A stretch of DNA of 16,884 bases, from UHGV virus genome UHGV-0068632, one strand, 5' to 3'. Every line of letters begins with the position of its first letter. Positions within the stretch are counted from its first letter, which is position 1. This document shows, one piece after another, positions 620-14,879 of the stretch. The position numbers were made by a program, and so were the translations under genes. The stretch is from a virus. A model generated the notes under the pieces. The model was not told the origin of the DNA. It ran no database searches and saw only the letters and a program-made list of their open reading frames with translations.

Positions 620-1309
620 ATGGTGAAAACTATGATTCATGTTCGAACAGGACAATTTGCGGCGGTGGTAGACGGCAGGAGGTATGCGTTTAATCCCTGC
701 TTCGCTGCAATGGCTAAGATCGGCAGTGACAGCGAACTGGTCGAATACTTCGCAACCATCCACGGTGGCAAATATCCATCACGATTGCCAGCAGATCCAG
801 ACCTTCGCAATCGCATTCTGGCGCGGTGTTATGGTGAGTTAGTGCAAACGTCAATACACATCCTGAAATGTTGCTCAGACAACGAAATAGGCCCGTTATT
901 GGGTGAATGTAGGTTTACTCCTTCCGGCAAATTGCGACTAAAACCCGGACTGATGCCGACCAGTGACGTTATCACGCTGGCGCAACATTGCATGTACCAC
1001 GGTTTAATCGGTGACGGGCCAGAAGAAGACGCCGGAGAGATCCGGGAAGGGGAATATAAGCCGACTTTTAACGTGCTGGAATTCGTTTATTCTGCCGTAG
1101 CTCACCTGGGGTTATCAGAATCAGAAGCATGGAATATGACAATGACCGGATATAGAGCCGCCGTACGCGCTAAAACGCCGCCAGACGAAAGAAACGAGAG
1201 AAGCAAGCCAAACGTTCACATAAATAAACGTGCTTATGACGAGCAAATGGAGGCCGCTAAAAAGGCACTAGAAAGAATGAAAAATCGAGAGCAAGAAAAA
1301 GCCCGGTAG
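620..1309 (+). CDS. Putative tail assembly chaperone (gene in the lambda G/GT position), 229 aa
   Basis: ORF located between the tail tube gene and the tape measure gene. The ATG at 620 abuts the terminator T-tract and has no clear RBS; an alternative ATG at 632 is preceded by ggtga at 5 nt spacing. Function assigned by synteny only. No slippery frameshift site identified. Confidence 0.45.
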   Translation: MVKTMIHVRTGQFAAVVDGRRYAFNPCFAAMAKIGSDSELVEYFATIHGGKYPSRLPADPDLRNRILARCYGELVQTSIHILKCCSDNEIGPLLGECRFTPSGKLRLKPGLMPTSDVITLAQHCMYHGLIGDGPEEDAGEIREGEYKPTFNVLEFVYSAVAHLGLSESEAWNMTMTGYRAAVRAKTPPDERNERSKPNVHINKRAYDEQMEAAKKALERMKNREQEKAR

Positions 1310-1325
1310 ATCCGGGCGTTTTTGT
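1294..1325. terminator. Bidirectional hairpin terminator between convergent genes
   Basis: GCCCGG-tagat-CCGGGC at 1301-1317, flanked by an A-tract upstream and GTTTTTG downstream. Lies between the + gene ending at 1309 and the - gene ending at 1335. Confidence 0.6.
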
Positions 1326-1334
1326 TAAGTTCGC

Positions 1335-1655
1335 TTATGCTATTTTTTCGTAAAGCACATTCATCTGGGTGCGAATCACTGTTAATATATTGATTGCTGC
1401 GTTCTTATCAATGCGTTTATTCGCTACTATTTTTGTTTTCCCATCAATAACAACCAGATCTGCGTGCAATACATGGTTGAAGTTGACAATGTAATAATAC
1501 TGTTTATCGCCAACATGTTGAACATATGCACCATTTAGATTTCCTTTATACCCACAATCACGCTCTGCGACACCGAAGTCAAATTCGCGGTTCATCTTGC
1601 GATTATATGCTACTTGTTTATGTTCCCATTTTCTCATCCATTCATCGCGCTTCAT
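1335..1655 (-). CDS. Hypothetical basic protein, 106 aa, last gene of minus-strand cassette 1
   Basis: ORF with RBS aagggtga upstream of the ATG at 1655. The RBS overlaps the stop of the upstream lipoprotein gene, suggesting translational coupling. Net basic composition. No family recognised. Confidence 0.65.
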   Translation of the reverse strand: MKRDEWMRKWEHKQVAYNRKMNREFDFGVAERDCGYKGNLNGAYVQHVGDKQYYYIVNFNHVLHADLVVIDGKTKIVANKRIDKNAAINILTVIRTQMNVLYEKIA

Positions 1656-1664
1656 GTTTCACCC

Positions 1665-2324
1665 TTAATTCCAGTTGCAAGCGTTTTTTACTTTGTCGAT
1701 GTGGTTATAAAGACCATCAATGTTAAACACTGCTTTCTCAATGTCGCCAGCTTCCGGCACTACTTCAATGATAAATTGTTTTTCGTTAACCAGATTTTTA
1801 ATCATTGGGATGGCTTTTTTGTCGTTCCATAATCCAAGAGCTTTATAGTTAGTTGACCGCCCCCATTCAGTGGCTACAGCTTTGTGATCGCCGATCCGGT
1901 AGTTAATATAAGTAGCGTCCCCGGCGTCAGTTACACGGTGTGACCATGCTACGAACATTTTTGTTTTATTACCCTGGCAAGCAATTGTTAATACCGGTTT
2001 ATTATTATCCTGTGCCTTCAGTGCCGGGAAGGCATCAAGACTTCCGCTAAAATGATCTGCTTTCACAAAAAGGAACACGTTTTTTGTGTCCTGCATATCA
2101 TCTTTTCTTTCGACCACAAGCCACTGTTTACCAGCTTTTTCTTTTGCTAACTGTGCCTCATATGCGGCTTGTTTTGCTTGTTGTTCCGCAAGCCATTTAG
2201 CATTTTTCTCAGCCAATGCTTGTTGTTCTTGAGTGGTCACTATAGGCGCTTTTTCATTATCCTCATTGCAACCAACCAGACCCAATACCGCCGCAATCAT
2301 TGCCACTTTTGCTAACTGTTTCAT
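1665..2324 (-). CDS. Putative outer-membrane lipoprotein, 219 aa, accessory (moron-like) gene
   Basis: N-terminus MKQLAKVAMIAAVLGLVGC has a signal peptide and lipobox L-V-G-C; residue +2 is Asn, which by the +2 rule predicts outer-membrane sorting. A Gln/Ala/Lys-rich predicted helical linker precedes a globular C-terminal domain. Opposite strand to the tail genes. Confidence 0.8.
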   Translation of the reverse strand: MKQLAKVAMIAAVLGLVGCNEDNEKAPIVTTQEQQALAEKNAKWLAEQQAKQAAYEAQLAKEKAGKQWLVVERKDDMQDTKNVFLFVKADHFSGSLDAFPALKAQDNNKPVLTIACQGNKTKMFVAWSHRVTDAGDATYINYRIGDHKAVATEWGRSTNYKALGLWNDKKAIPMIKNLVNEKQFIIEVVPEAGDIEKAVFNIDGLYNHIDKVKNACNWN

Positions 2325-2336
2325 AACCCACCACGC

Positions 2337-2426
2337 TTAGTTTTTATTTTTAAGTGATTTTAACATTTCTTCAATGAAATCCGCATAGCGTTCATGTTCG
2401 TTGGGACGGTAGTTTACGTTTTTCAT
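2337..2426 (-). CDS. Small hypothetical ORF, 29 aa (MKNVNYRPNEHERYADFIEEMLKSLKNKN), first gene of cassette 1
   Basis: Found by hand; below the ORF track cutoff. RBS gagga lies 4 nt upstream of the ATG at 2426, and its stop is 12 nt upstream of the lipoprotein start. Short, so coding status is uncertain. Confidence 0.35.
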   Translation of the reverse strand: MKNVNYRPNEHERYADFIEEMLKSLKNKN

Positions 2427-2503
2427 TTTCTTGTCCTCTTTTGCTTCCTCCGGTTTATCCGGTCCTTTTAAATCCCTTTACTCTATCCATTTCCTTTAGC
2501 CTC

Positions 2504-2567
2504 TTTATACAAAATGTATTCGTTGAAGTGAAGCCATTTTGTATAAAATAGAGACATAGATCACATC
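2504..2567. promoter_or_regulatory. Divergent promoter/operator region carrying the shared motif pair
   Basis: Perfect 13-bp inverted repeat tttatacaaaatg (2504-2516) / cattttgtataaa (2535-2547) containing a TATAAA -10-like core in each orientation. Followed by catagatcaca (2555-2565) with a GATC site, 20 nt upstream of the tape measure ATG. Confidence 0.45.
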
Positions 2568-2584
2568 TTGTATGAGGTTAAATC

Positions 2585-4924
2585 ATGGCTACCAGTGTAG
2601 GTACAATTTATTACGAAGTTGATGCAAAAACTGGTCAACTTCTCGTTGCACAACGACAGGCAGACCAGGCCTTTGACCGTATAGAGCGCGGCGCAAAACA
2701 GGCTGACCGCCAGGTAAACACCCTGAAAACATCCATCAAGGCACTGACCAGGGTTATCCATTTGCTAATTGCTGCCGAGGCTGTGCGCCAATTTATGGAT
2801 ATGGCGGAGCAAGCCAAAATGCTTCGCGTAAAAATCAAATTGCTTACAGGTGAAGCGGAGGCAACGGAACGGGTTTTCAACAGACTGAAAGAAATATCAA
2901 AAGAAACAGGCCAAAGCCTCAAGGATACTGGTGCCCTGTGGCAAGGTCTTGCTATATCGCTAAAAAACACATCCGCCACAGAAGGCCAGGTGCTCAACCT
3001 GGTCAGCACGCTGCAAAAACTTGGTAACTTGGGCGGCGTGTCTGCGGAACAACTATCAAACTCCATGCTTCAGTTCCGCCAGGCTATTGATGCTGGCGTG
3101 TTGCAGGCGGAAGAGTTCAACTCAATACGTGATAACACCCCAACAATCATACAGGAAATGGCCCGACAGATGGGGTTATCTATGGGGCAGTTCCGCGCCG
3201 AAATGCTGGACGGCAAGATCACGGCTGAAAGGATGCTCAACGCGATCCAGGCGGCTACGCAGGAAACAAACGAGAAGTTTGCACAGTTACCGCGCACGTC
3301 CGGTATGGCTTTTAATGAGCTTAAAGTCGAGGTGATGGGACTTGTCGAACAACTTGATGATCTTTTCGGCATATCAGATGGCGTTGTGTCAGCTATCGAC
3401 TTAATAACTGGTGGCGTTGAGGGATTAGGTAAAGGCGCAAAATTCGCCGCAACCTGTTTCAATACACTAAAAACGGCTGGCAGTGAGTTTATCGACATGT
3501 TTGATGATGTTGCTGTTAAAGCTGGTGAGGTGGCGGAAGAGATTATCAGGATGGTAACGCCAATCAAAGCGCTAATGGATGGCTACAAATGGATGAAGGA
3601 GATCATTGATAAACGCAAGAATGAGCTAAACAGCAACAACGAAAAGAAATTCGGCCCTACAGTCGGTAAGGTCATGACGTTTGCAAATGACATCAAAAAT
3701 GCGACCGCCGCTTATGATGAGTTTATGCAGAAACAGGGTGAGGCTGATGACGGCAAGATCACCGGATTCGATCAGCCAGTTGGCAAGCCGAAAAAAGGGA
3801 AAAAAGACAAGAAATCTGAAGCTGATCGGCTTGGTGATGAAGGCATAAAAGTATCCGACCAGTACAACAAAGACGCCGCAGCTATGCGCAAAGCGTTAGA
3901 GAACGGCAAGGCCATTGATGCTGCATTCGCCCAGGGTAAAATCACTCTCCTTGAGTACCGCGCCGCGCAAAAAGGGATAGGTAAGGAACTGAAGGAAGAA
4001 TTAGCGCAAATTCCGGTAGATGAATTGCGTGATAAATGGGCGCAAATAGTAAGCCCGATGGATCAGCTTAAAGGTGAGGTTGACCCTATCCAGCAGGTGC
4101 AGAATGAATGGGCCGTCCGTAAGCAAATGCTTATCGACCTGGGCGTTACTGAAGCGCAACAGAAACAGGAACTGTTAGCCTATGAGCAACAGATCCGTGA
4201 TCTGAAGTGGGAACAGTGGCAGGCACAAAGCGATACAAACGGCCTTATCGGTGATTGCGTTAATGGCCTAAAAGGTGGTATGAGCAATGCACTTGTTGGC
4301 CTGTTAAATGGTACTCAATCATTGAGTGATGTTTTTGCTAACTTAGGCAGCAATATCCTCGGGAATATCGGTAACAGGCTTTCAGACATAGCTGCAAACT
4401 GGATAGCAGATCAGATCATGATGGAAACGCAAAGCAAAGCGACTCAGGCAAGTACCACGGCGGGCGCGGTAGCGGCGCAAGGCCAGATTGCTGCGGCGGC
4501 GGCCCCGGCGGCGGCGGCAACAGCGGCGTCAACTGGCGGCGCATGGGCGGCGGCTGGTTCTGCGGCACTCACTGCGATCATGTCGCTGGCTACGTCAATT
4601 TTCGGCGGCGGTCGCTTTAATGGTGGTAGCGTTATTGGTGGCAATATGTACCGCGTAGGGGAACACAACAGGCCGGAGCTATTCCAGACATCTAACGGAA
4701 ATCAATATATGATCCCAGGCGAGAATGGCAGGGTTATTCCTGGGCGTGATATTGGCGGTGGCGGCGGCATTAGTATGCCTGTCAATATCAACATTCAGAC
4801 CACAAACGGATTTAGCGACGAAGACAGTCGCAGACTTGAGCAAACAATGGAACGTGTAGCAATGAAGATGATAACAAGGGAATCACAAAGACCTGGAGGA
4901 ATATTGCAACCGCGCCGCAAATAA
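2585..4924 (+). CDS. Tail tape measure protein, 779 aa
   Basis: Large ORF in the expected position, with RBS gagg 8 nt upstream. Has the mostly helical N-terminal region and the Ala/Gly-rich hydrophobic segment (QASTTAGAVAAQGQIAAAAAPAAAATAAS...) typical of tape measure proteins. Followed by gpM/L/K/I/J homologues. Confidence 0.9.
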   Translation: MATSVGTIYYEVDAKTGQLLVAQRQADQAFDRIERGAKQADRQVNTLKTSIKALTRVIHLLIAAEAVRQFMDMAEQAKMLRVKIKLLTGEAEATERVFNRLKEISKETGQSLKDTGALWQGLAISLKNTSATEGQVLNLVSTLQKLGNLGGVSAEQLSNSMLQFRQAIDAGVLQAEEFNSIRDNTPTIIQEMARQMGLSMGQFRAEMLDGKITAERMLNAIQAATQETNEKFAQLPRTSGMAFNELKVEVMGLVEQLDDLFGISDGVVSAIDLITGGVEGLGKGAKFAATCFNTLKTAGSEFIDMFDDVAVKAGEVAEEIIRMVTPIKALMDGYKWMKEIIDKRKNELNSNNEKKFGPTVGKVMTFANDIKNATAAYDEFMQKQGEADDGKITGFDQPVGKPKKGKKDKKSEADRLGDEGIKVSDQYNKDAAAMRKALENGKAIDAAFAQGKITLLEYRAAQKGIGKELKEELAQIPVDELRDKWAQIVSPMDQLKGEVDPIQQVQNEWAVRKQMLIDLGVTEAQQKQELLAYEQQIRDLKWEQWQAQSDTNGLIGDCVNGLKGGMSNALVGLLNGTQSLSDVFANLGSNILGNIGNRLSDIAANWIADQIMMETQSKATQASTTAGAVAAQGQIAAAAAPAAAATAASTGGAWAAAGSAALTAIMSLATSIFGGGRFNGGSVIGGNMYRVGEHNRPELFQTSNGNQYMIPGENGRVIPGRDIGGGGGISMPVNINIQTTNGFSDEDSRRLEQTMERVAMKMITRESQRPGGILQPRRK

Positions 4925-4927
4925 ACG

Positions 4928-4958
4928 AAACCCCGGTACAATGCCGGGGTTATCTTTT
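4928..4958. terminator. Bidirectional hairpin terminator
   Basis: CCCCGG-tacaatg-CCGGGG at 4931-4949 followed by TTATCTTTT. Lies between the tape measure stop (4924) and the stop of the minus-strand ORF at 4957. Confidence 0.6.
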
Positions 4959-5133
4959 AGTTATTCTCAAAACTTGTATATCCTCTTTCAATTTTCCCGC
5001 CTCTTACACTTCTTGCAAATACTGCATCATTATGTTTGAAAAATGGTTCAGTATATGTGTCTCCTTTACTATCCATCCATTTCACGATCCAGGCTATACG
5101 TTTTACATTGCTTTTATTTGCCTGGTTTTTCAT
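4957..5133 (-). CDS. Small hypothetical protein, 58 aa (MKNQANKSNVKRIAWIVKWMDSKGDTYTEPFFKHNDAVFARSVRGGKIERGYTSFENN)
   Basis: Found by hand; one codon under the track cutoff. Strong RBS ggagg about 9 nt upstream of the ATG at 5133. The overlapping + strand track ORFs 5032-5289 and 5043-5228 lack an RBS and look like low-complexity antisense artefacts. Confidence 0.5.
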   Translation of the reverse strand: MKNQANKSNVKRIAWIVKWMDSKGDTYTEPFFKHNDAVFARSVRGGKIERGYTSFENN

Positions 5134-5151
5134 TTTATTTTCCTCCGCAAA

Positions 5152-5244
5152 TTACAATCTTCCGTTTCTGGCTATATAGCTGCGAGAAAACATCACCAAC
5201 CAAATATTCCAGATCTCCCTCCAGGTGAATTTATCGTCCTCCAT
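5152..5244 (-). CDS. Possible micro-ORF, 30 aa (MEDDKFTWREIWNIWLVMFSRSYIARNGRL)
   Basis: RBS gaggtg upstream of the ATG at 5244 overlaps the TGA stop of the 84-aa gene, and its own stop sits just upstream of the RBS of the 58-aa gene. Very short, so low confidence. Confidence 0.25.
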   Translation of the reverse strand: MEDDKFTWREIWNIWLVMFSRSYIARNGRL

Positions 5245-5251
5245 ACCCACC

Positions 5252-5506
5252 TCACTTATGGCAACCGCGAACGCCAGACAATTCATTGAATTTATGGTGT
5301 TCAACAATCACCCACTCTTTCAGATCCTGGCTATAGACTCGCCAGTCTAAATTGGCGCGGAAGGCGTAGCCGTAACCGTCTTTCAATTTTTTGGGTGACG
5401 CATTCTTGTTTAAAAACGCGTTCAAAAGTTCCTTTGCTTTTTTGACTACATGTCCCGGCGCGTTTTTCTGTGCTTTCAGATTTTTGTCAATCGCTACCAG
5501 TTTCAT
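5252..5506 (-). CDS. Basic 84-aa protein, tentatively RelE/ParE-superfamily-like (candidate toxin or mRNA interferase)
   Basis: Complete ORF in the track. Net charge about +9. The segment KKLKDGYGYAFRANLDWRVYSQDLKEWVIVEHHK resembles, by eye, the beta-strand core and C-terminal His/Tyr region of RelE/YoeB/YafQ-type toxins. This is pattern recognition only, not an alignment. Confidence 0.55.
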   Translation of the reverse strand: MKLVAIDKNLKAQKNAPGHVVKKAKELLNAFLNKNASPKKLKDGYGYAFRANLDWRVYSQDLKEWVIVEHHKFNELSGVRGCHK

Positions 5507-5523
5507 AACTCACCCCATCATCC

Positions 5524-5678
5524 TTAGTTAAGTGCCTTCAGGAAGAAGTCCCGGTATTCATCTTCTTTTGCATTCATCATGAATTGACCGTATTTGAATG
5601 CGTCGTCGAAACCCTTAACGATTGCTATTTCCACTTGTTCGAATGCGTTGTTTAGCATTACCACTACATAGCGTTTCA
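5524..5678 (-). CDS. Small hypothetical protein, 51 aa (MKRYVVVMLNNAFEQVEIAIVKGFDDAFKYGQFMMNAKEDEYRDFFLKALN), possible partner of the 84-aa protein
   Basis: Strong RBS aggagg 6-7 nt upstream of the ATG at 5678. The track's longer 76-aa version starting at 5754 runs through the promoter motif and has no RBS, so the internal start is preferred. Lies 17 nt upstream of the 84-aa gene. Confidence 0.55.
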
Positions 5679-5744
5679 TTTTGGGCCTCCTTCGTTGGTA
5701 CTGCTTTTCTTCTTGCTTTCTATATACATCTTGATGCGTGATAT

Positions 5745-5830
5745 GTGAAGCCATTTTGTAAACTAGCTATAATCATTGTGATGAAGATCTCATTTTTTGC
5801 GTAGAATCGCGTAAAAGTATATACAAAATG
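5745..5830. promoter_or_regulatory. Divergent promoter/operator region carrying the shared motif pair
   Basis: gtgaagccattttgta at 5745-5760 is identical over 16 bp to 2528-2543. A perfect TATAAT lies at 5768-5773 and a GATC at 5786-5789. The motif recurs in reverse orientation as tatacaaaatg at 5820-5830. Confidence 0.4.
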
Positions 5831-5848
5831 TAAATTATAGGGGGATTT

Positions 5849-6202
5849 ATGCCTGAAGTGTTCCGATGGACACCACAAAGAAGCTACAGCGTAAACAGTG
5901 AGCCTAACGTGTCTGTCATTAAGCTGGGTGATGGGTATGAACAGCGCCAGACAAAAGGGATTAACCCTTTACTTGATAGCTACAGCCTGGTTTTTAAAGG
6001 CACAAGCGCCGGATGCGGTGACGCCGGAAACGTGGCGCTCCAAGTTGACGCATTTTTAAGGGCGCGTTGCGCGGTCGAGGCGTTTTACTGGACTCCATCA
6101 ACTGACGGGGTGCAAAGGCTTTTTGTATGCAGAAAGTGGAGCATGACGAAAGACGGCCCGGTATGCACGCTAAACGCAACTTTTGAGCAAGTTGTCAATT
6201 AA
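5849..6202 (+). CDS. Minor tail protein, lambda gpM-like, 117 aa
   Basis: Matches my recollection of lambda gpM along its length: FRW near the N-terminus, GDGYxQR, WTP, CxKWS, and the C-terminal FEQVVN. RBS ggggga 4 nt upstream. Confidence 0.9.
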   Translation: MPEVFRWTPQRSYSVNSEPNVSVIKLGDGYEQRQTKGINPLLDSYSLVFKGTSAGCGDAGNVALQVDAFLRARCAVEAFYWTPSTDGVQRLFVCRKWSMTKDGPVCTLNATFEQVVN

Positions 6203-6215
6203 TGGAGGTGTCAAT

Positions 6216-6401
6216 ATGTATGCTATTTGTGTAGTGGACCGCACGGGCGCTTTTACATTGTTTGACGACTATGAAATCAACGATCTTACTGTAAAGGCTG
6301 ATAATGGCGAGATCTGGTATCTTCATGATGTTGGTGACGGGTATGTCGGATGCAGATCGAGAGAGGGTAGGGAAGTTTTATTTTTACTTGATGGCGTATA
6401 A
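6216..6401 (+). CDS. Small hypothetical protein, 61 aa, between the gpM-like and gpL-like genes
   Basis: RBS ggaggtg about 6 nt upstream of the ATG at 6216. The track start at 6183 has no RBS. No counterpart in the lambda M-L junction, so probably accessory. Confidence 0.55.
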   Translation: MYAICVVDRTGAFTLFDDYEINDLTVKADNGEIWYLHDVGDGYVGCRSREGREVLFLLDGV

Positions 6402-6406
6402 ACACG

Positions 6407-6433
6407 ACCCCGCGCGAAGCGGGGTTATTATTA
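6407..6433. terminator. Bidirectional hairpin terminator
   Basis: ACCCCGC-gcgaa-GCGGGGT at 6407-6425 followed by TATTATTATT. The same 19-mer occurs as an exact reverse complement at 14606-14624. Confidence 0.6.
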
Positions 6434-6547
6434 TTCCATTTCCATTAACGCTATATTTTCTGCTATCGTTTTCCAGTCCAGATCTACAGCATGAACACCA
6501 AATACTATCAATCCCATTGCGATTAGTGCTAAAACTTCGATTTTCAT
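6431..6547 (-). CDS. Small putative membrane protein, 38 aa (MKIEVLALIAMGLIVFGVHAVDLDWKTIAENIALMEME)
   Basis: Found by hand. RBS gtgagg 6 nt upstream of the ATG at 6547. The hydrophobic N-terminal segment predicts a single transmembrane helix. The stop overlaps the terminator tail. Confidence 0.45.
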   Translation of the reverse strand: MKIEVLALIAMGLIVFGVHAVDLDWKTIAENIALMEME

Positions 6548-6638
6548 AATCAACCTCACTTAATTAAGAAAGGCATAAACGATGGCAATCGCGCCAGCCA
6601 CTACCAAAACATTTCGATCACTTCGTCTACTTTATTGA

Positions 6639-6842
6639 TTAAGGTAACTCCACTTCGTTAAATGTAACAAGCACCCCTTGATTTTCTTTATTTATAATTA
6701 TGAAGGCATTAATTGAAGGCAGACATCTTTCCACGCGGTAAACGTCACCAATATCTAAACTGTAATATTCTGTTAATTCTCTATTGTTCCCTTTAGCAAA
6801 ACCCGTAAACCTAACCATTTTTTGACCGTCGTACTTTAACAT
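6639..6842 (-). CDS. Hypothetical protein, 67 aa, cassette 3
   Basis: ORF in the track. RBS agga 6 nt upstream of the ATG at 6842. Lies 9 nt downstream of the preceding gene's stop. No family recognised. Confidence 0.65.
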   Translation of the reverse strand: MLKYDGQKMVRFTGFAKGNNRELTEYYSLDIGDVYRVERCLPSINAFIIINKENQGVLVTFNEVELP

Positions 6843-6850
6843 ATACAGTC

Positions 6851-7099
6851 CTATAGGTTATCACGCAGATAATTAACGCCTTTGTCAGTGACGAATGAGT
6901 GATTAACCTGGTTTTCATCCGTCATGATGATGAATGACTTTTCCTGTAGGTATTTCGCTTTTGGGTACAGCGTTAAACAGACCTGGTACAGTATCCCGCG
7001 CTCAATCAGCAAATCAATAAATTCGTGCTCATGATAACCGACGAGGCGGGCGGCTTGTTTCAACGTGTACACATAATCGCCGTGATTGCGCCGCCCCAT
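6851..7099 (-). CDS. Hypothetical protein, 82 aa, possible helix-turn-helix DNA-binding protein
   Basis: ORF in the track with RBS aaggcgg upstream. The segment YTLKQAARLVGYHEHEFIDLLIERGIL has the spacing of an HTH motif of the excisionase/AlpA-like type. Judged by eye only. Confidence 0.6.
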   Translation of the reverse strand: MGRRNHGDYVYTLKQAARLVGYHEHEFIDLLIERGILYQVCLTLYPKAKYLQEKSFIIMTDENQVNHSFVTDKGVNYLRDNL

Positions 7100-7108
7100 G
7101 TTGCCGCC

Positions 7109-7456
7109 TTATTTATCGAATGCGCCCAGGTTATCTATGCAGAAGTCTTTCGCAGCTTTTTCGTATTCGCGTTTTGCTTGCGGATCGTCTGCCGGGAAAC
7201 CTTTTGCGTGTATTTCACCAGGGCAAGACTGATCCATAGAATCAGCAAATTCAACATTGACGTTAAAGTTAATATCTTTCGGATTCATGTTTTCCACCTC
7301 ATCAATTATCTGCACCGGATTAGCGGCATATTTCACTGGATGGCCTAAACTACATTCAAGAATCCTTCCTTCTTCCAAAGCTGCCTCTTCGCTATCAAAT
7401 AATCCGAAACACTCCTTGCAACCACTTAACCACACATCAAGACTATATTTTTGCAT
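7109..7456 (-). CDS. Acidic hypothetical protein, 115 aa, cassette 3
   Basis: ORF in the track. RBS gagagg 8 nt upstream of the ATG at 7456. About 23 Asp/Glu against about 11 Lys/Arg (net charge near -12). Contains a CxxC pair (CKEC). No family recognised. Confidence 0.7.
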   Translation of the reverse strand: MQKYSLDVWLSGCKECFGLFDSEEAALEEGRILECSLGHPVKYAANPVQIIDEVENMNPKDINFNVNVEFADSMDQSCPGEIHAKGFPADDPQAKREYEKAAKDFCIDNLGAFDK

Positions 7457-7468
7457 TTCGTTAACCTC

Positions 7469-7624
7469 TCATTTGACAGGTTCGATTCTGTACCCCAAAA
7501 CGCGTTCGTCTTCAGCGAGTAATAGCGCGTCAGTCAGTGCCTCGCCTTCGTCTTTATACAGAGCTACAGTCATTTCCCTGCCACCTGACAGGAATACCTT
7601 CAACCTCCACACCTTATCAGCCAT
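7469..7624 (-). CDS. Small hypothetical protein, 51 aa (MADKVWRLKVFLSGGREMTVALYKDEGEALTDALLLAEDERVLGYRIEPVK), first gene of cassette 3
   Basis: Strong RBS ggagg 6 nt upstream of the ATG at 7624. The track's 76-aa version starting at 7699 has no RBS and extends into the promoter region. Stop lies 12 nt upstream of the next gene. Confidence 0.55.
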   Translation of the reverse strand: MADKVWRLKVFLSGGREMTVALYKDEGEALTDALLLAEDERVLGYRIEPVK

Positions 7625-7628
7625 CTCA

Positions 7629-7739
7629 CACCTCCGCGCCATTTTGTTAACTGTGCTTCCGTTTGAGTAAAATATACATATTGTATAAACCGCGATCAAT
7701 CCATTTTGGTATGATTTAGCGTGACGCAGATCACAAAAT
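7629..7739. promoter_or_regulatory. Divergent promoter/operator region carrying the shared motif family
   Basis: Motif variants at 7629-7641 (ccattttgttaac), about 7669-7681 (catattgtataaa) and 7701-7715 (ccattttggtatgat, containing the extended -10-like TGGTATGAT). agatcacaaaat at 7728-7739 is identical to 15004-15015. Confidence 0.4.
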
Positions 7740-7753
7740 CAGAAGGTGAGAAA

Positions 7754-8458
7754 ATGCGCAATATACCTACAGAGATGATTATTGATTCCGTGGACGCTGG
7801 TGTGGGCGCGGTGATTGACTTGTTCGAACTGGACTTGTCGCCCCTGGGTGGCGAGGTTATCCGCTTCCATTCCGGCGCGAATGGCTATTACGGCCCGGTT
7901 ATCTGGAAGGGATTAACTTACAACAGCTACCCGATCGAGGCTACTGGCTTCGAAATGAAAAACGAGGGCGTTTATTCGCGGCCTCAAATGGTTGTAGCCA
8001 ATATCGGCGGGCTAATCACAGGGATGAATAACGACTTCAACGACCTGCGAGGAATGAAGGTTACGCGCCGCCAGGTGGAAGTAAAATACCTGGACGCCGT
8101 TAACTTCCCAAACGGCAATCCAGACGCAGATCCATCTATTGAGGCTGTATCTTTTTACGTCGTGGAGGCCATGAGCGAGGAAACAGCGGATCAGGTGCAA
8201 TATGAGCTGTCAACGCCAATTGATGCTGATAAGGCCGTTATCCCTGGGCGCACCATCCTTGCTGACGTTTGCCAGTGGCAATACAGAGGCGACGGGTGTA
8301 TGTACGCTGGCGGACCAGTAGCAAACGATAAAGACGAGCCGACAAGCGATCCTAAAGCCGACAGATGCAGCCACCGTCTAAGCGGTTGTCGTTTGCGTTT
8401 CCCGCGTCCAAATCCGTTACCGATTTCCTGTTTCCCTGGTTCCAGTAAGGTAGGTTAA
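7754..8458 (+). CDS. Minor tail protein, lambda gpL-like, about 234 aa
   Basis: Extended match to my recollection of lambda gpL: TGFE, SRPQ, GMxxDxxxL, VTRRQV, FLDAVNFPNGN, AVxPGRxxLAxxCxWxYRGDxC, CSHRLSGCRLRF. The ATG at 7754 follows gaaggtgag; the track's start at 7721 is a GTG inside the conserved leader motif. Confidence 0.9.
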   Translation: MRNIPTEMIIDSVDAGVGAVIDLFELDLSPLGGEVIRFHSGANGYYGPVIWKGLTYNSYPIEATGFEMKNEGVYSRPQMVVANIGGLITGMNNDFNDLRGMKVTRRQVEVKYLDAVNFPNGNPDADPSIEAVSFYVVEAMSEETADQVQYELSTPIDADKAVIPGRTILADVCQWQYRGDGCMYAGGPVANDKDEPTSDPKADRCSHRLSGCRLRFPRPNPLPISCFPGSSKVG

Positions 8459-8460
8459 TC

Positions 8461-9192
8461 ATGGTAATGGAAGACAAAATGTTGCGTTATGCCGCCGCGC
8501 ATCCGTTTGAAGAAGTTTGCGGACTGGTAATAGATAACGAATATTTTTACCCGTGCGCTAACGTGTCTGAAACGCCCTACAACAGCTTCAAAATTTCGCC
8601 GGACGATTACATCAAAGCTGACGAATTGGGCGTTATAACCGCCGTTTTTCACTCTCACGTTGATGATATTCCGGTATTGTCGGCACGGGATCGACAACAG
8701 CAGGTTATTTCAGGACTACCCTGGCTTTTGTATTCAGGCGGAAGGATCAGGAAATTCCGTCCGGTAGCGCACCTGTTAGGCAGAAAATTTGAACACGGGA
8801 AAACAGACTGCTACGCGCTTTTCCGCGACGCCTATCACCTTTGCGGCGTGGATCTGCCTGACTTCGAGCGCCTTGATGGGTGGTGGTTGCGTGGTGAAAA
8901 CCTGTATTTAAAAAACTTGCCTCTAAACGGGTTTTTCCAGGTTGACGCTAAAAGCATACAGCCTGGAGATGTAATTATCCGGCAGCCGTTTAAAGGCGCG
9001 GACCCATGCCACGCGATGATTTACCTGGGCGATAACACTGTTTTGCATCATGACAATGCCGGACTGCTAAGCCGCCGCGAGCAAATGCGGCCCGCTTATG
9101 TTCGACAAACGCATTCAATATGGAGATCTGATAAATGCTCAAATTTAGATTTACGGGCAATCTTCGAAGATATTACAGCAAAGTGTGTTTAA
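8461..9192 (+). CDS. Tail assembly protein, lambda gpK-like, with MPN/JAB and NlpC/P60-like domains, 243 aa
   Basis: N-terminal EEVCGLV plus HSHVDD...S..D, a JAMM-type metal-binding motif. C-terminal half has a conserved Cys (KTDCYALFRDAY) and His residues (HAMIYLGDNTVLHH), as in NlpC/P60 hydrolases. Lambda K has the same two-domain layout. Confidence 0.9.
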   Translation: MVMEDKMLRYAAAHPFEEVCGLVIDNEYFYPCANVSETPYNSFKISPDDYIKADELGVITAVFHSHVDDIPVLSARDRQQQVISGLPWLLYSGGRIRKFRPVAHLLGRKFEHGKTDCYALFRDAYHLCGVDLPDFERLDGWWLRGENLYLKNLPLNGFFQVDAKSIQPGDVIIRQPFKGADPCHAMIYLGDNTVLHHDNAGLLSRREQMRPAYVRQTHSIWRSDKCSNLDLRAIFEDITAKCV

Positions 9193-9665
9193 ACGTTGAA
9201 ACGCCAGCGCAAGGACTTCGCTTGTTGACCGCGCAGAATCAGGAATTCAAGAAGGCGTTTTTAAATACACCTTTGCGTTTACGAATTTCCGGGAAAGATT
9301 ACGACGAAAAGACCGCGCCCGCTGCGGTTAATAGCAAATATCCAGATGGGACTACGGTAATTATTGCGCCAATAGTGGAAGGTGGTATTGCAGGGATCGG
9401 TGTGGTCGGTTGGATTATGATCGGAATATCAGTTGTTAGTGTCGCATTTTCTATTTTCATGTCTCGCAACATGAAGGTGAAAACATCATCAGAAAGCGCA
9501 CAGGATAACACCATAACAAACAACAGTTACACCAGCATAGAAAACAGGGTGGGCCAGGGTAGACCAGTGCCAATTTTATTGGGTGAAATGAAAGTAGGTT
9601 CAAACGTCGGATCGTTAGGCATAGACACAACAAACAATAAAGACGCCTTAGACGTTGTAAGTTAA
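9135..9665 (+). CDS. Tail assembly protein, lambda gpI-like, 176 aa
   Basis: N-terminus LKFRFTGNLRRYY aligns with lambda I (ICLYGDLQRFG). Has the Gly/Ala-rich hydrophobic stretch and LLGEMKVGSNVGS, corresponding to lambda LYGEMRVGSRVVS. Overlaps the 3' end of the gpK-like gene by 58 bp in another frame, as in lambda. Confidence 0.85.
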   Translation: MLKFRFTGNLRRYYSKVCLNVETPAQGLRLLTAQNQEFKKAFLNTPLRLRISGKDYDEKTAPAAVNSKYPDGTTVIIAPIVEGGIAGIGVVGWIMIGISVVSVAFSIFMSRNMKVKTSSESAQDNTITNNSYTSIENRVGQGRPVPILLGEMKVGSNVGSLGIDTTNNKDALDVVS

Positions 9666-9679
9666 CAGGAGAAATAACC

Positions 9680-12600
9680 ATGAGTAGCGGCGGCGGCAAA
9701 GCAAAAACACCAACTTTAATTAACGATAATCTATATCACAAACAGTTTTATCGTGTACTCGACATTATTTCAGAAGGTCCGATTTATGGTCCTGTTAATA
9801 CCAATGCGCCATTAAACAGCGTAATGCTTAATGACACCCCTGTAACTGACGCGAACGGCAATACCAGCATCCCCGGTATTAGCGTAGCGTGGCGCAATGG
9901 TACGATAGATCAATCACCGATTAACGGTTTTAACGCCATTGAATCAACCGTTATTGTTAACGCACAGGTTAAACACGATACACCAATAATCAGGACCGTT
10001 TCCGATCCTAACGTAAACCGCGTTCGCCTGAATATCGGCGTCGATTCACTTGTACAATCTGACGAGCAAAGCAATCAACATAACACATCGGTTATGATGA
10101 TGATTGACGTGAAGCCTTCGTCTTCTTCTACGTGGACGCTTGTTAAAGACGTTACTATAGGCCCAGGTAAGATCAGCGGAGAATATCTTGAAGCGCATAT
10201 TATCAATGCACCAGATGAAAAACCGTTTGATATTCGCGTTCGCCGTGTAACCGCTGATAGCACAAGCGATCTGTTGCAGAATGATACGCGATGGAGTAGC
10301 TACAGCGAAATAATCGACGATAATTTGTCTTATCCTCACACCGCTGTAGCTGGCGCGGTAATTGACCATGATCAGTACGCTGACACGCCTACCCGCACCT
10401 ATCACCTTCGCGGGCTGATTGTTGATATTCCTGATAACTACGACCCGGAAAAGCGCACTTATTCCGGTTTGTGGCTTGGCGGCTTCAAACAGGCGTACAC
10501 CAATAACCCAGCATGGATCTTCCGCTATCTGGTTAAAAACGAGCGTTTCGGCCTTGCTCGTCACGCTGGCTATATTGACGTTGACGACGGCGCATTATAT
10601 ACGCTTTCTCAATACTGCGACCAGTTGGTTGATGATGGCTACGGCGGCCTTGAGCCTCGCATGACGCTTAACGCTTACATCACAGAGCAAATGAGCGCCC
10701 GCGACTTACTGGACAATATCGCCGGGATGTTCAGGGGTATCGCGTTATGGGACGGGCAACGCCTTACCGTGATGATTGATGCACCACAAGACCCGATCGC
10801 CACCATTACAAATGCAAATGTCGTTGATGGCGCGTTTACTCGTTCAAGTATCGCCCGCGCAGAATGCTACAACGCCGTGATCGTATCATGGACTGACCCG
10901 GAAAACGGATGGGAGCAATCAAAAGAGTATGTAGCAGACGATGAACTGATCGCCCGTGATGGTTACAACGAAACCACGTTAGAGGCGTTCGGGTGCACAT
11001 CACGCGGGCAAGCATACCGCGCGGGCAAGTGGCTGATAGAAACAGCAAAACGCGAGCCGTCAAAATTCACGTTTAAAATGGCGCGTGACGCGATTCACTT
11101 TACGCCAGGGGATATTATCGAGATACTCGACAATAACCGCGCAGGCGCTCGTTTAGGCGGCCGCATCGTTGCGAACAACGGCAAAGTAATAACGGTAGAT
11201 AAGGTTGACGCCAATTATATCGCCGCTGGGGATACAATCAGCCTTCTTGATAGCGATGGCAAGTTTAAAAAGCATCAGATCACCGGGGTGAGCGGAAACA
11301 AAATCACACTGGCGGCGGCCCCGTCATGGATTCGAAACGGCACTGTTTTTGCTGTATCCACTGAATCAGCAAAACCCGTTTTGTGCCGGATCACCAGTGT
11401 AGCCGAAACAGAAAATAACAGCGTGTACACCATCGAGGCCGCACAGCACGACCCGAACAAGCAAGCAGTGGTCGATGAAGGCGCAATATTTGAAGTCAAC
11501 AATGACACGCTTAACCATTTCCGCGTGCCGAACATTGAAAATCTGAAGGTGGTAAACATTGGATCGGAAACAATTCAATGTCGCGCCACATGGGAAACGC
11601 AGACAACAACGCATCGTATGACATTTGAGATCCGCATATATAATGCAGATGGTGCGGTGGTTAAAAGCTATGAAACAACGAAATACAGTTATGATTTTTA
11701 TGGCATTGACGCTGGCGTGTATTCTTTAGGGGTTCGCGGAAGAAATGACACTGGCATGAAGGGCGCGGAAAGTATTGTGGATCTGGTTATTGGTGCGCCA
11801 GCAGCGCCAATAGGTGTTAACTGGGTACCAGGTGTATTTCAGGCTACCGTATACCCGATAAGTAAGACAACGCTAACCACTGATACAGCGTATGAATTCT
11901 ACTATGCAGGGGAAAACCAGATCACAGATCCGGCAAAAATAACCACGGCGGCACAGTTTACCGGGCGCGGGTATCAGTGGACGTTCGGCGGAATGAACAC
12001 GGGCCATACTTATTACGTTTATGTGCGTACACGTAATGCTTTTGGCGTGTCAGACTTCGTTGAAGCATCAGGTAAGCCGACAGAAAATTTTGATGAAATT
12101 AGCGATTACGTCACCAAAGACGTGATGAATTCCGAACAATTTAAAGAAATGGTGGGCGACATTAAGGATCTTGGCGATCGCACTGACATTATCGAAAGTG
12201 CAACTCAAGACCTTAAAACAGCTACTGATACCCTAAGCGGAATAACTGAAGGCTTAAGAACTGATACTGATAATTTAATTACAGAAACAGAATCAATTAA
12301 AGCTGATACTGATTCCCTTAAAAAAGACACTGAAGACCTTTACAAGAAAGTCGAAGAAAACGCCGATGAAATAGGTAAACATGAGGTAAGAATTGACTCA
12401 TTAGAGGTATCAAGCGAAAACGTAGATAATGAACTGGCACAGACAAAAGCAAGCCTACAAAACGCATCGCTTGCTCTTATTAATAATTCGCTTGCTCAAA
12501 CTAATACCAGAAGAACGCTGACAGCTCAGATCAAAAACGTGGATTATGAAACTAAGGCGCAAATAGATCGCATTGATAACGTGATTGTCAGTGAAAAAGA

Positions 12601-14606: not shown

Positions 14607-14632
14607 CCCCGCTTCGCGCGGGGTTTTCTTTT
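14607..14632. terminator. Bidirectional intrinsic terminator between the J-like gene and the lipoprotein gene
   Basis: CCCCGC-ttcgc-GCGGGG at 14607-14623 followed by TTTTCTTTT. Lies 8 nt after the J-like stop codon, and the minus-strand lipoprotein stop overlaps the T-tract. Confidence 0.65.
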
Positions 14633-14879
14633 AGTAGTTAGCTACACAATTCGACGGGCTACCTATGCGGCGCATGTTGTGATCGAGTTCATGACACCAT
14701 TGACCAGTATATGGCAGTTTTTCAGTGTCATATACAAGATGACCATTAGCATCATAGACGATTTCTTGTGGAATCACTCCGCTATTTGGCAGGTTATGCA
14801 ATGCAGCTTCTTTGTCAACAGCGCAACCAGTAAGAGCAACAGCCGCAGCGAATAAAACCACTTTGAACATGTTTTTCAT
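14631..14879 (-). CDS. Small outer-membrane lipoprotein, 82 aa, in the Cor/Llp position (candidate receptor-blocking superinfection exclusion protein)
   Basis: N-terminus MKNMFKVVLFAAAVALTGC has a signal peptide and lipobox L-T-G-C with Ala at +2. RBS gagga 6-7 nt upstream. Encoded convergently just downstream of the receptor-binding J-like gene, where T1/phi80-type Cor and T5 Llp genes are found. Assigned by position and type, not by sequence homology. Confidence 0.7.
   Translation of the reverse strand: MKNMFKVVLFAAAVALTGCAVDKEAALHNLPNSGVIPQEIVYDANGHLVYDTEKLPYTGQWCHELDHNMRRIGSPSNCVANY

Follow-up and report, generated by a model that had tools for sequence, protein, structure and literature searches.

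Probable small-protein genes in moron-like minus-strand cassettes of an mEpimmI-type coliphage tail region

Four small reading frames on the minus strand

In the virus genome UHGV-0068632, whose 16,884-nt stretch was analysed as a whole and is referred to below as the window, four short open reading frames (ORFs) lie on the minus strand, within three accessory cassettes (0, A and B) of the tail region. They are named s58, s30, s38 and s29 after the length of their products in amino acids (aa). In cassette A, s30 (5152-5244) encodes a Trp-rich peptide modelled as a single helix (MEDDKFTWREIWNIWLVMFSRSYIARNGRL), and s58 (4957-5133), the last gene there, a basic and presumably soluble protein. 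The last gene of cassette B, s38 (6431-6547), encodes a putative single-pass membrane protein, and the first gene of cassette 0, s29 (2337-2426), a hydrophilic peptide with the profile of an amphipathic helix. An earlier note made from the letters alone had obtained these frames by hand translation, and all four were found where it had placed them, each with an ATG start and a Shine-Dalgarno (SD) sequence. The SDs are purine-rich and stand 5-9 nt upstream of the ATG, with gcGGAGGaaaataaaATG upstream of s58, GTGAGGTGGGT directly upstream of s30, GTGAGG for s38 (upstream sequence GTGAGGttgatt) and AGAGGA for s29 (upstream sequence aAGAGGAcaagaaa).

Regarding the neighbours, several of these frames had been described as stop/start coupled. 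The close spacing stood, with 7 nt from the stop of the 84-aa gene to the s30 ATG (the s30 SD overlapping that stop), 18 nt from the s30 stop to the s58 ATG and 12 nt from the s29 stop to the next ATG; the coupling itself did not, as no overlaps occur and s38 begins 91 nt after the stop of the preceding gene. A GTG start at 6559, which would lengthen s38 to 42 aa, was discarded as the sequence upstream is not conserved. With 90 ORFs of at least 25 aa overlapping positions 1500-8500, i.e. 7 kb, an ORF preceded by an SD is by itself not beyond chance, and the evidence that exceeds chance is conservation.

By sequence comparison, the window is the tail region of a temperate coliphage of the mEpimmI (mEp021-like) type. 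Over 4900-7750, it is 94% identical to Escherichia phage MagusPhagus and 82-87% identical to mEp010, mEp013, mEp554, mEp515, mEp044 and mEp021, and its genes follow the same order. The mEpimmI phages form a Nus-dependent, non-lambdoid group; in human faecal samples they were reported to equal lambdoid phages in frequency (PMC11893012). A related prophage segment was present in 35 of 5426 complete Escherichia coli genomes. The loci compared came from seven GenBank phages, E. coli prophages and IMG/VR contigs, about 40 relatives overall; 22 of the IMG/VR contigs were retrieved by a degenerate pattern fixing just nine codons of s30, 23 contigs via s58 and 20 via s29.

The comparison of nonsynonymous with synonymous substitution (pN and pS) that the earlier note had suggested was run with the NG86 method, and it gave pN/pS of 0.07-0.19 in the proposed frames, together with a clustering of variable columns, counted per codon position, at position 3 in all four ORFs. 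The gene s58 is intact in 26/26 loci with 55-58 aa (pN/pS 0.19, pS 0.35; 9, 11 and 36 variable columns at positions 1, 2 and 3; chi-square p = 5e-6). Exactly 30 codons were found for s30 in the 33/33 loci where it was detected, including 7/7 GenBank phages, 3 prophages and 22 viral contigs among others (pN/pS 0.10, pS 0.66; 12, 7 and 25 columns; p = 0.003). Two forms of s38 differing at the C-terminus, of 38 and 45 aa (s45), are intact in 20 loci (pN/pS 0.16-0.18, pS 0.46; 10, 9 and 23 columns; p = 0.013). As for s29, it is intact in all loci examined (15, then more), where it varies between 27 and 29 aa with a clean one-codon indel (pN/pS 0.07, pS 0.48; 5, 2 and 13 columns; p = 0.008). Across the relatives, prophages included, every phage and viral-contig copy of the four ORFs is intact, its ATG and SD being conserved too.

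The remaining frames gave pN/pS of about 1-4 or contained stops in most sequences, with the sole exception of an antisense frame sharing the wobble position, where mimicry of the coding frame is expected. With pS of 0.35-0.66, synonymous sites drift freely, so that constraint at the nucleotide level (RNA or DNA) cannot account for the conservation; a pS of up to 0.66 also means that the relatives are not a single recent clone. From this pattern of substitution, the four ORFs are judged to be protein-coding genes kept by purifying selection. The 85-aa ORF on the plus strand at 5032-5289, already suspected of being an antisense artefact, is not a gene: it has stops or is truncated in most relatives and its frames show pN/pS of 1-4.

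The ORFs had also been presented as missing from the annotation, which is true of some of them only. PGAP lists s58, and s38 in its 45-aa form, as hypothetical proteins, both are PHANOTATE or Pharokka calls in phage records, and s30 is annotated in 6/7 phage records, mEp021 being the exception. In the RefSeq E. coli genomes containing the region, s30 is systematically missed (0/20), and s29 is annotated in no phage record, some carrying instead an opposite-strand ORF of 102-105 nt; nothing is annotated at s29 in 20/21 RefSeq genomes, with one possible exception. An ORF of 58 aa would likewise miss a length cut-off of 60 aa. Two strongly constrained peptide genes of 29 and 30 aa (pN/pS 0.07-0.10) have thus been overlooked by standard annotation, a spurious ORF on the other strand taking the place of the former in several phage records.

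Accessory cassettes among the tail genes

The placement of the small ORFs in accessory cassettes, as first proposed, holds well, in the form of three reverse-oriented, AT-richer blocks between tail genes of the plus strand. Those tail genes form a siphovirus tail module with the tape-measure protein gene (2585-4924), a lambda-M-like minor tail protein gene (5849-6202), and L-like (7721-8458), K-like (8461-9192), I-like (9135-9665) and J-like (9680-14599) genes. Directly after the M-like gene, a 61-aa gene of the plus strand (6216-6401, inside ORF 6183-6401) corresponds to a 186-nt coding sequence annotated in all relatives and ends at a bidirectional terminator. The G+C content is 0.40-0.41 in 1501-2500 and 5001-6000 and 0.38 in 6501-7000, whereas the tape-measure gene and the L/K genes have 0.47-0.52.

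Cassette 0 (2426 to 1335, minus strand) comprises s29, a gene for a 219-aa lipoprotein with a VasI domain (1665-2324; PF11319, 53.9 bits; lipobox LVGC) and, further downstream, a 106-aa protein gene (1335-1655); the presence of VasI, a type VI secretion domain, is unusual among the cargo of tail-region cassettes in phages. Cassette A (5679 to 4957, minus strand) starts with a 51-aa gene (5524-5679), which matches phrog_29810 with E = 9e-40 and is annotated at 156 nt in relatives, followed by an 84-aa gene with a ParE_like domain (5252-5506; PF24732, 32.1 bits for a cut-off of 24.4) directly upstream of s30, and then by s30 and s58. Cassette B (7624 to 6431, minus strand) holds genes for 51 aa (7469-7624), 115 aa (7109-7456), an 82-aa protein matching ANT/KilAC in Pfam (6851-7099) and 67 aa (6639-6842), and finally s38. 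Among the genes of cassette B, the PGAP names 'transporter' and 'phage antirepressor KilAC domain-containing protein' occur.

Each block ends at an intrinsic terminator that is bidirectional, with a GC-rich hairpin and a T-run on both strands, so that the cassettes have the terminator of their own that is typical of morons. These terminators lie at 1301-1317 at the end of cassette 0, at 4929-4951 between the tape-measure gene and s58, where ARNold terminators fall at the same place in mEp010, mEp554, mEp515 and mEp044, and at 6406-6426 after s38, with relatives annotated alike. Directly upstream of each cassette, on the minus strand, stands a promoter-like element: CAAAATGG-c-TTCACT-17-TATAAA for cassette 0 (2504-2541), CAAAATGG-c-TTCACA-17-TATATA for cassette A (5721-5758) and CAAAATGG-a-TTGATC-17-TATATT for cassette B (7671-7708). 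Their common design, CAAAATGG-N-TT[CG]A[CT]N-17-TATAWW, is a pattern defined post hoc and is kept in relatives; it has 81 occurrences in 53 related loci. The elements of cassettes 0 and A have an exact 16-nt repeat in common (GTGAAGCCATTTTGTA; 2528-2543 and 5745-5760), and the core 9-mer CATTTTGTA is matched 18 times in the window with at most one mismatch, against 7.0 +/- 2.5 expected. This shared element could represent a promoter type in common use, or else a site bound by a phage regulator. Longer readings of the two 51-aa genes, of 76 aa with starts at 5754 and 7699, were set aside as these starts lie upstream of the predicted promoters; if the elements are promoters, both starts would precede the transcription start and the 51-aa PGAP readings would be right.

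Among relatives, presence and absence vary per gene, as seen for s30, s58, the 51-aa gene, the 67-aa gene and the cargo after s29, and gene gain, loss and insertion fall at gene boundaries. In mEp515 (L006, 2005-2511) and in E. coli E21845/O/A (L072), for instance, an HNH endonuclease gene and a 49-aa ORF stand between the ParE_like gene and s30, which makes the gene boundaries of cassette A insertion points. The gene s29 is followed by at least five different downstream genes across relatives, the cargo including the VasI-like lipoprotein, three kinds of signal-peptide proteins and a 35-aa transmembrane peptide. The micro-ORF for the latter (MDAIETVIDVYITAWLAFNVMAVLVLAMTTEDKRN) lies 11-13 nt after s29 in many relatives (L014, L018, L024, L053, L055, L057, L062, L076, L078, L081 and L085), and in the window the lipoprotein gene occupies its place. 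At the level of sequence, this turnover shows each gene to be gained and lost as an independent module, mobile among coliphages. Each cassette looks like a transcription unit of its own, with a putative sigma-70-like promoter element and a bidirectional terminator, in a layout that agrees with the published definition of morons (PMC3594210).

Predicted products and their homologues

The AlphaFold2 (AF2) model of s30 is one helix over residues 2-27 (pLDDT 86), in which the N-terminus is acidic, Trp and Ile residues form a stripe and the C-terminus is basic, with GRL as its last residues. Its summed Hessa score of +10.3 makes it too polar for a membrane span, and a type I-like membrane toxin was ruled out on this hydropathy; the peptide is modelled as one soluble, amphipathic, Trp-rich helix. 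The s29 peptide is strongly amphipathic (hydrophobic moment 0.52) with a Hessa sum of +27.4. For s58, with a net charge of +5 and a Hessa sum of +16.6, one AF2 model, the best, reaches pLDDT 79 and shows beta-beta-alpha-beta, against only about 50 for the remaining four, so the protein is described here as a small basic domain of predicted beta-beta-alpha-beta topology. Only weak sub-threshold matches were returned for it, to phrog_1670 'DNA binding protein' (E = 0.007) and, in Pfam, Phage_ORF5 (E = 0.004), and when the sequences of s58 and of the 84-aa protein were searched against the PDB, chance matches only came back. Members of the s58 and s45/s38 families in a word-index protein search came exclusively from E. 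coli phages and prophages, with identities of 66-97%. The degenerate s30 pattern, run against species-representative genomes, returned five matches, all by chance and in unrelated organisms. A stop-codon read-through fusing s30 to s58, which share a frame in the window, was rejected because their spacing in mEp515, 19 nt, is not a multiple of 3.

The s38 product was expected to have a single transmembrane helix and the hydropathy agrees, with a Kyte-Doolittle mean of 2.3 over 19 residues, a summed Hessa score of +1.4 and a helix at about residues 3-21. In the s38/s45 family, a nearly invariant N-terminal hydrophobic helix, MKIEVLALIxMGLIVFGVHA, precedes a short variable tail. The Pfam scan of s38 gave only sub-threshold Holin_SPP1 and DUF6814, and the protein does not belong to the YebO family. 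Its gene being flanked by the M-like and L-like tail genes, it is, like HK97 gp15, a predicted small inner-membrane protein of the tail region. Alternatively, s38 might be secreted, residues 1-20 being a Sec signal peptide cut after VHA to free a periplasmic peptide of 18 aa (or 25 aa). The n-region (MK), the 14-residue hydrophobic core and a V-H-A motif fitting the -3/-1 rule would suit such processing, but no part of the protein is better conserved than this nearly invariant hydrophobic segment, which would be unusual in a mere signal peptide, and position 4 is acidic; secretion is therefore considered unlikely, although an appreciable share of probability is granted to it.

Outside the mEpimmI group, an exhaustive HMMER search with s30 gave one distant relative, P0058, of 37 aa (59% identity, E = 1.6e-4). 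On the 143-kb contig of P0058, homologues of s29, s30 and s58 are consecutive on one strand, each with a strong SD. The s29 homologue has 28 aa (MKDYYKANEHERVADFIKEMLKGLNNKK) with 74% identity over 23 aligned residues, and the s58 homologue 75 aa, of which 45 residues align at 53% identity. A ParE_like protein of 88 aa is encoded 2.2 kb further on; its identity to the two alleles known from the mEpimmI loci is 47-53%. The same s29-s30-s58 order occurs in two independent IMG/VR contigs of 139-141 kb, the ParE_like gene lying about 2.2-2.3 kb beyond the trio in these large-phage arrays, and a third contig of 136 kb has only the s58 homologue. The contigs of about 140 kb concerned are IMGVR_UViG_3300045988_159287, _140627 and _163358 and Logan SRR24288470_1265. 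The large-phage locus had no megablast match among GenBank phages and was weakly similar, by blastn, to Vequintavirinae-like coliphages; tblastn of the 75-aa s58 homologue against GenBank phages returned no match. In the rV5-like phage Murica, gp131 (L045, 2390-2602, 70 aa) ends in ...DDLTWEDIVDIWFSIMPEHEEFRGGRL and is weakly s30-like (DDKFTWREIWNIW...RNGRL), including the C-terminal GRL, and the s30 helix may also exist as a C-terminal module of longer proteins.

From these arrays, it can be conceived that s29, s30 and s58, possibly with the ParE_like protein, make up one module of several micro-proteins common to temperate mEpimmI siphophages and apparently virulent, Vequintavirinae-like phages of about 140 kb; variants of this idea could be a ParE-fold effector tuned by peptides of 28-60 aa, or a three-peptide complex disabling a host defence or a competitor phage. 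If it were true, the s29-s30-s58 order of the large phages would be the ancestral operon, split later around the tape-measure gene in the mEpimmI phages. Across the 35 E. coli genomes, presence of the s29 region goes with presence of the s30 region at an odds ratio of 15.6 (Fisher p = 0.001), a figure given little weight because a single prophage carries both loci, 2.7 kb from each other, and the genomes are non-independent. Such a module is clearly unlikely and is put forward tentatively.

Alternative readings and possible roles

Membrane toxins, antitoxins and inhibitors had been named as frequent roles of small proteins in accessory cassettes. The toxin and antitoxin part found no support, s30 being too polar for a membrane and the ParE_like gene occurring without s30 and without the 51-aa gene. 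A dedicated version of that reading would make cassette A a ParE-type toxin-antitoxin or abortive-infection module, with the 84-aa protein as toxin and s30 and/or the 51-aa protein as antitoxin. The 84-aa protein does score above the Pfam ParE_like threshold, as a member of the ParE/RelE superfamily would, a second allele reaches 45.6 bits against PF24732, and in some genomes PGAP names the protein 'ParE family toxin-like protein'. Besides, s30 begins 7 nt past the ParE_like stop codon, all ParE_like loci examined keep at least one of the 51-aa gene and s30, and the s30 homologue belongs to the same small-gene array as a ParE_like gene in the phages of about 140 kb. Within that array, however, the two are some 2.4-2.6 kb apart, and in mEp554 and mEp515 extra genes, the HNH endonuclease included, split ParE_like from s30.

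The partners are not constant either. ParE_like and s30, with s58, occur without the 51-aa gene (L016, L021); the 51-aa gene accompanies ParE_like in loci from which s30 is absent or has been deleted (L036, L037, L056, L060, L064, L065), the last four loci retaining s58 and lacking s30 cleanly; in E. coli N25 and M1/5, ParE_like and the 51-aa gene remain, s58 is missing and s30 is cut to its last 10 codons; and ParE_like, the 51-aa gene and s30 occur without s58 (L003, L017, L035). Without a constant partner of ParE_like, a dedicated toxin-antitoxin pair is not supported. Between the two ParE_like alleles identity is only about 60%, whereas it stays near 90% for s30 and for the 51-aa protein (homologues L002-L009), with no sign of co-evolution, a divergence that suggests allele replacement by recombination or diversifying selection. 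Neither s30 nor the 51-aa protein has a DNA-binding domain (ribbon-helix-helix, helix-turn-helix or PHD) in Pfam or NCBIfam, and PADLOC gave no match. The typical ParE is longer than the 84-aa ParE_like protein. Compared with ParDE and PaaA2-ParE2, type II modules of E. coli prophages to which the cassette is similar in having a PF24732 protein flanked by very small proteins in one prophage operon, it differs by the lack of a fixed partner, of an antitoxin DNA-binding domain and of any identified autoregulatory operator. Taken together, a toxin-antitoxin function of cassette A seems improbable, a small share of probability being left to it.

The type I toxins Hok, Ldr, TisB and Ibs are comparable in size (19-50 aa) and include prophage-borne examples. 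Unlike them, s30, s29 and s58 have no transmembrane helix, their Hessa sums of +10.3, +27.4 and +16.6 failing where only s38 (+1.4) qualifies; s38 does have a helix but closes an ordinary operon as its last cistron. The Rfam scan over 1200-7800 revealed no antisense RNA family, and two chance-level matches were all that appeared at E <= 1. More broadly, neither PADLOC and NCBIfam for the cassette proteins nor Rfam over the same interval supported a defence or type I toxin system. The cassette proteins matched only PHROGs families without assigned function and nothing in NCBIfam, and their above-threshold Pfam matches besides VasI were confined to ParE_like (84 aa) and ANT/KilAC (82 aa).

It could also be argued that s29 and s30 act as upstream ORFs for regulatory leader or arrest peptides, whose translation would control the next gene, the peptides themselves being without a function. 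In both cases the following gene begins 9-18 nt away, no other cistron ever comes before s29 past the promoter region, and known arrest peptides such as TnaC and SecM are likewise conserved at the amino-acid level. Against this stand the intact s58, with the same SD, where s30 is absent, and the presence of s30 without s58 (L003, L017, L035); s29 precedes at least five unrelated genes at similar spacing and is thus not tied to any one of them. Moreover, the peptides are conserved over their whole length and not just in a C-terminal arrest motif, and neither a structured intergenic RNA nor an Rfam match was found, so that a leader function is held to be very improbable. Weakest of all, the idea that the four ORFs are chance open frames in a non-coding spacer, or are conserved via overlapping DNA or RNA signals, can call on the plentiful random ORFs of such size and on s30 and s29 not being called by PGAP, but is effectively refuted by the substitution pattern, with low pN/pS alongside high pS, variation tracking codon position 3, alternative frames all broken or at pN/pS >=1, an in-frame indel in s29 and homologues at 48-74% protein identity in unrelated phages where the DNA is not alignable, and its probability is negligible.

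The reading preferred here is that the four ORFs are, in all likelihood, real and translated small-protein genes of an mEpimmI coliphage, arranged in three autonomous moron-like cassettes, and we hold it with good confidence. The moron layout would permit their expression independently of the late tail operon. The products of s29, s30 and s58 would be free-standing cytoplasmic micro-proteins binding a host or phage protein, rather than enzymes, pore-forming toxins or leader peptides, and their role may be a modulation of the host or of competitors useful to temperate and virulent phages alike. As for s38, it would insert in the inner membrane and most plausibly act like other membrane proteins of tail-region morons, e.g. 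in superinfection exclusion.

Several points weigh against this interpretation. As the promoter pattern was drawn up with the three sites already in view, it is a lead and not a proof, and a generic promoter scan was at chance, with 12 found for 12.9 expected. Transcription and translation of the four ORFs are read from the genome sequence, and the binding of partners is deduced solely from how large the products are and how they are shaped; in the PHROGs, NCBIfam, Pfam, PADLOC and PDB searches, no match to a family, a fold or a defence system assigns a function. Within the mEpimmI phages, s29, s30 and s58 do not strictly co-occur, s29 being found in contigs lacking s30, and s30 without s58 in the three loci named above, so that the trio may be a shared gene pool and not one functional unit. 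Finally, s30 is deleted, frameshifted or decayed in several resident E. coli prophages and absent from some contigs found via s58: in the 20 mEpimmI-type contigs ascertained in that way, a sample unbiased for s30, it was intact in 16, cleanly absent in 4 and disrupted in none, and in isolated phages it was intact in 7/7. It follows that s30 is dispensable, yet strongly constrained where present in phage genomes. The decayed copies, of MIN12 type, belong to E. coli prophages. The prophages of E. coli KKa019 (L038) and GN05505 (L071) have the same 1-nt deletion in s30, a frameshift that leaves a possible 23-aa remnant from a newly created ATG (MREIWNIWLVMFGRSCAARNGRL in L038, the first N being K in L071).

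The closest known arrangement is that of HK97 gene 15, the original moron, which codes for a small inner-membrane exclusion protein and has the tail chaperone gene on one side and the tape-measure gene on the other (PMC3594210); this gp15 is YebO-like and acts in superinfection exclusion (Juhala 2000; Cumby 2012; reviewed in PMC3594210). The cassettes of the window resemble such morons as small, apparently independent units among tail genes with their own terminator, a candidate promoter element, lower G+C content and variable presence; cassette 0 is even at the same site, just upstream of the tape-measure gene, and s38 is, like gp15, a small protein with a single predicted membrane pass. They differ in being multi-cistron and on the opposite strand, and in having homologues in apparently virulent phages of about 140 kb as well. 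Furthermore, s38 has no sequence similarity to YebO/gp15 (no Pfam match), its exclusion role being proposed by analogy, and three of the four products are predicted to be soluble.

Within the same phage group, reverse-strand lipoprotein genes in the structural cluster confer superinfection exclusion, as shown experimentally, the Lpp exclusion lipoproteins being gp81 of mEp021 and gp116 of mEp010 (PMC11893012). The small ORFs are, similarly, reverse-strand accessory genes within the structural cluster, whereas their products are not lipoproteins and their sequences are unrelated; a text search of PMC11893012 found no discussion of them. In the window, an 82-aa lipoprotein gene (MKNMFKVVLFAAAVALTGC...; 14631-14879, minus strand) follows the J-like gene, at the position of the Lpp exclusion lipoproteins (PMC11893012). 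With respect to size range and to a soluble single-helix or mini-domain shape, s29, s30 and s58 are also comparable to phage effector peptides, which are encoded in arrays of small accessory genes, virulent phages included. Such peptides bind host proteins, e.g. Stp of T4 (26 aa), CIII (54 aa) and Kil (47 aa) of lambda, and Gp2 of T7 (64 aa).

The occurrence of these genes in temperate and apparently virulent phages argues, speculatively, for a role in infection or competition and against a trait purely benefiting the lysogen. The ordered trio found in unrelated large coliphages offers a concrete and cheap set of targets, namely three peptides and one ParE_like protein; should it lead nowhere, the outcome would be the ordinary one of small hypothetical phage genes correctly recognised. 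Because tail-region cassettes of mEpimmI phages already hold experimentally proven superinfection-exclusion genes, the small proteins described here are good candidates for additional factors of prophage-host or phage-phage interaction.

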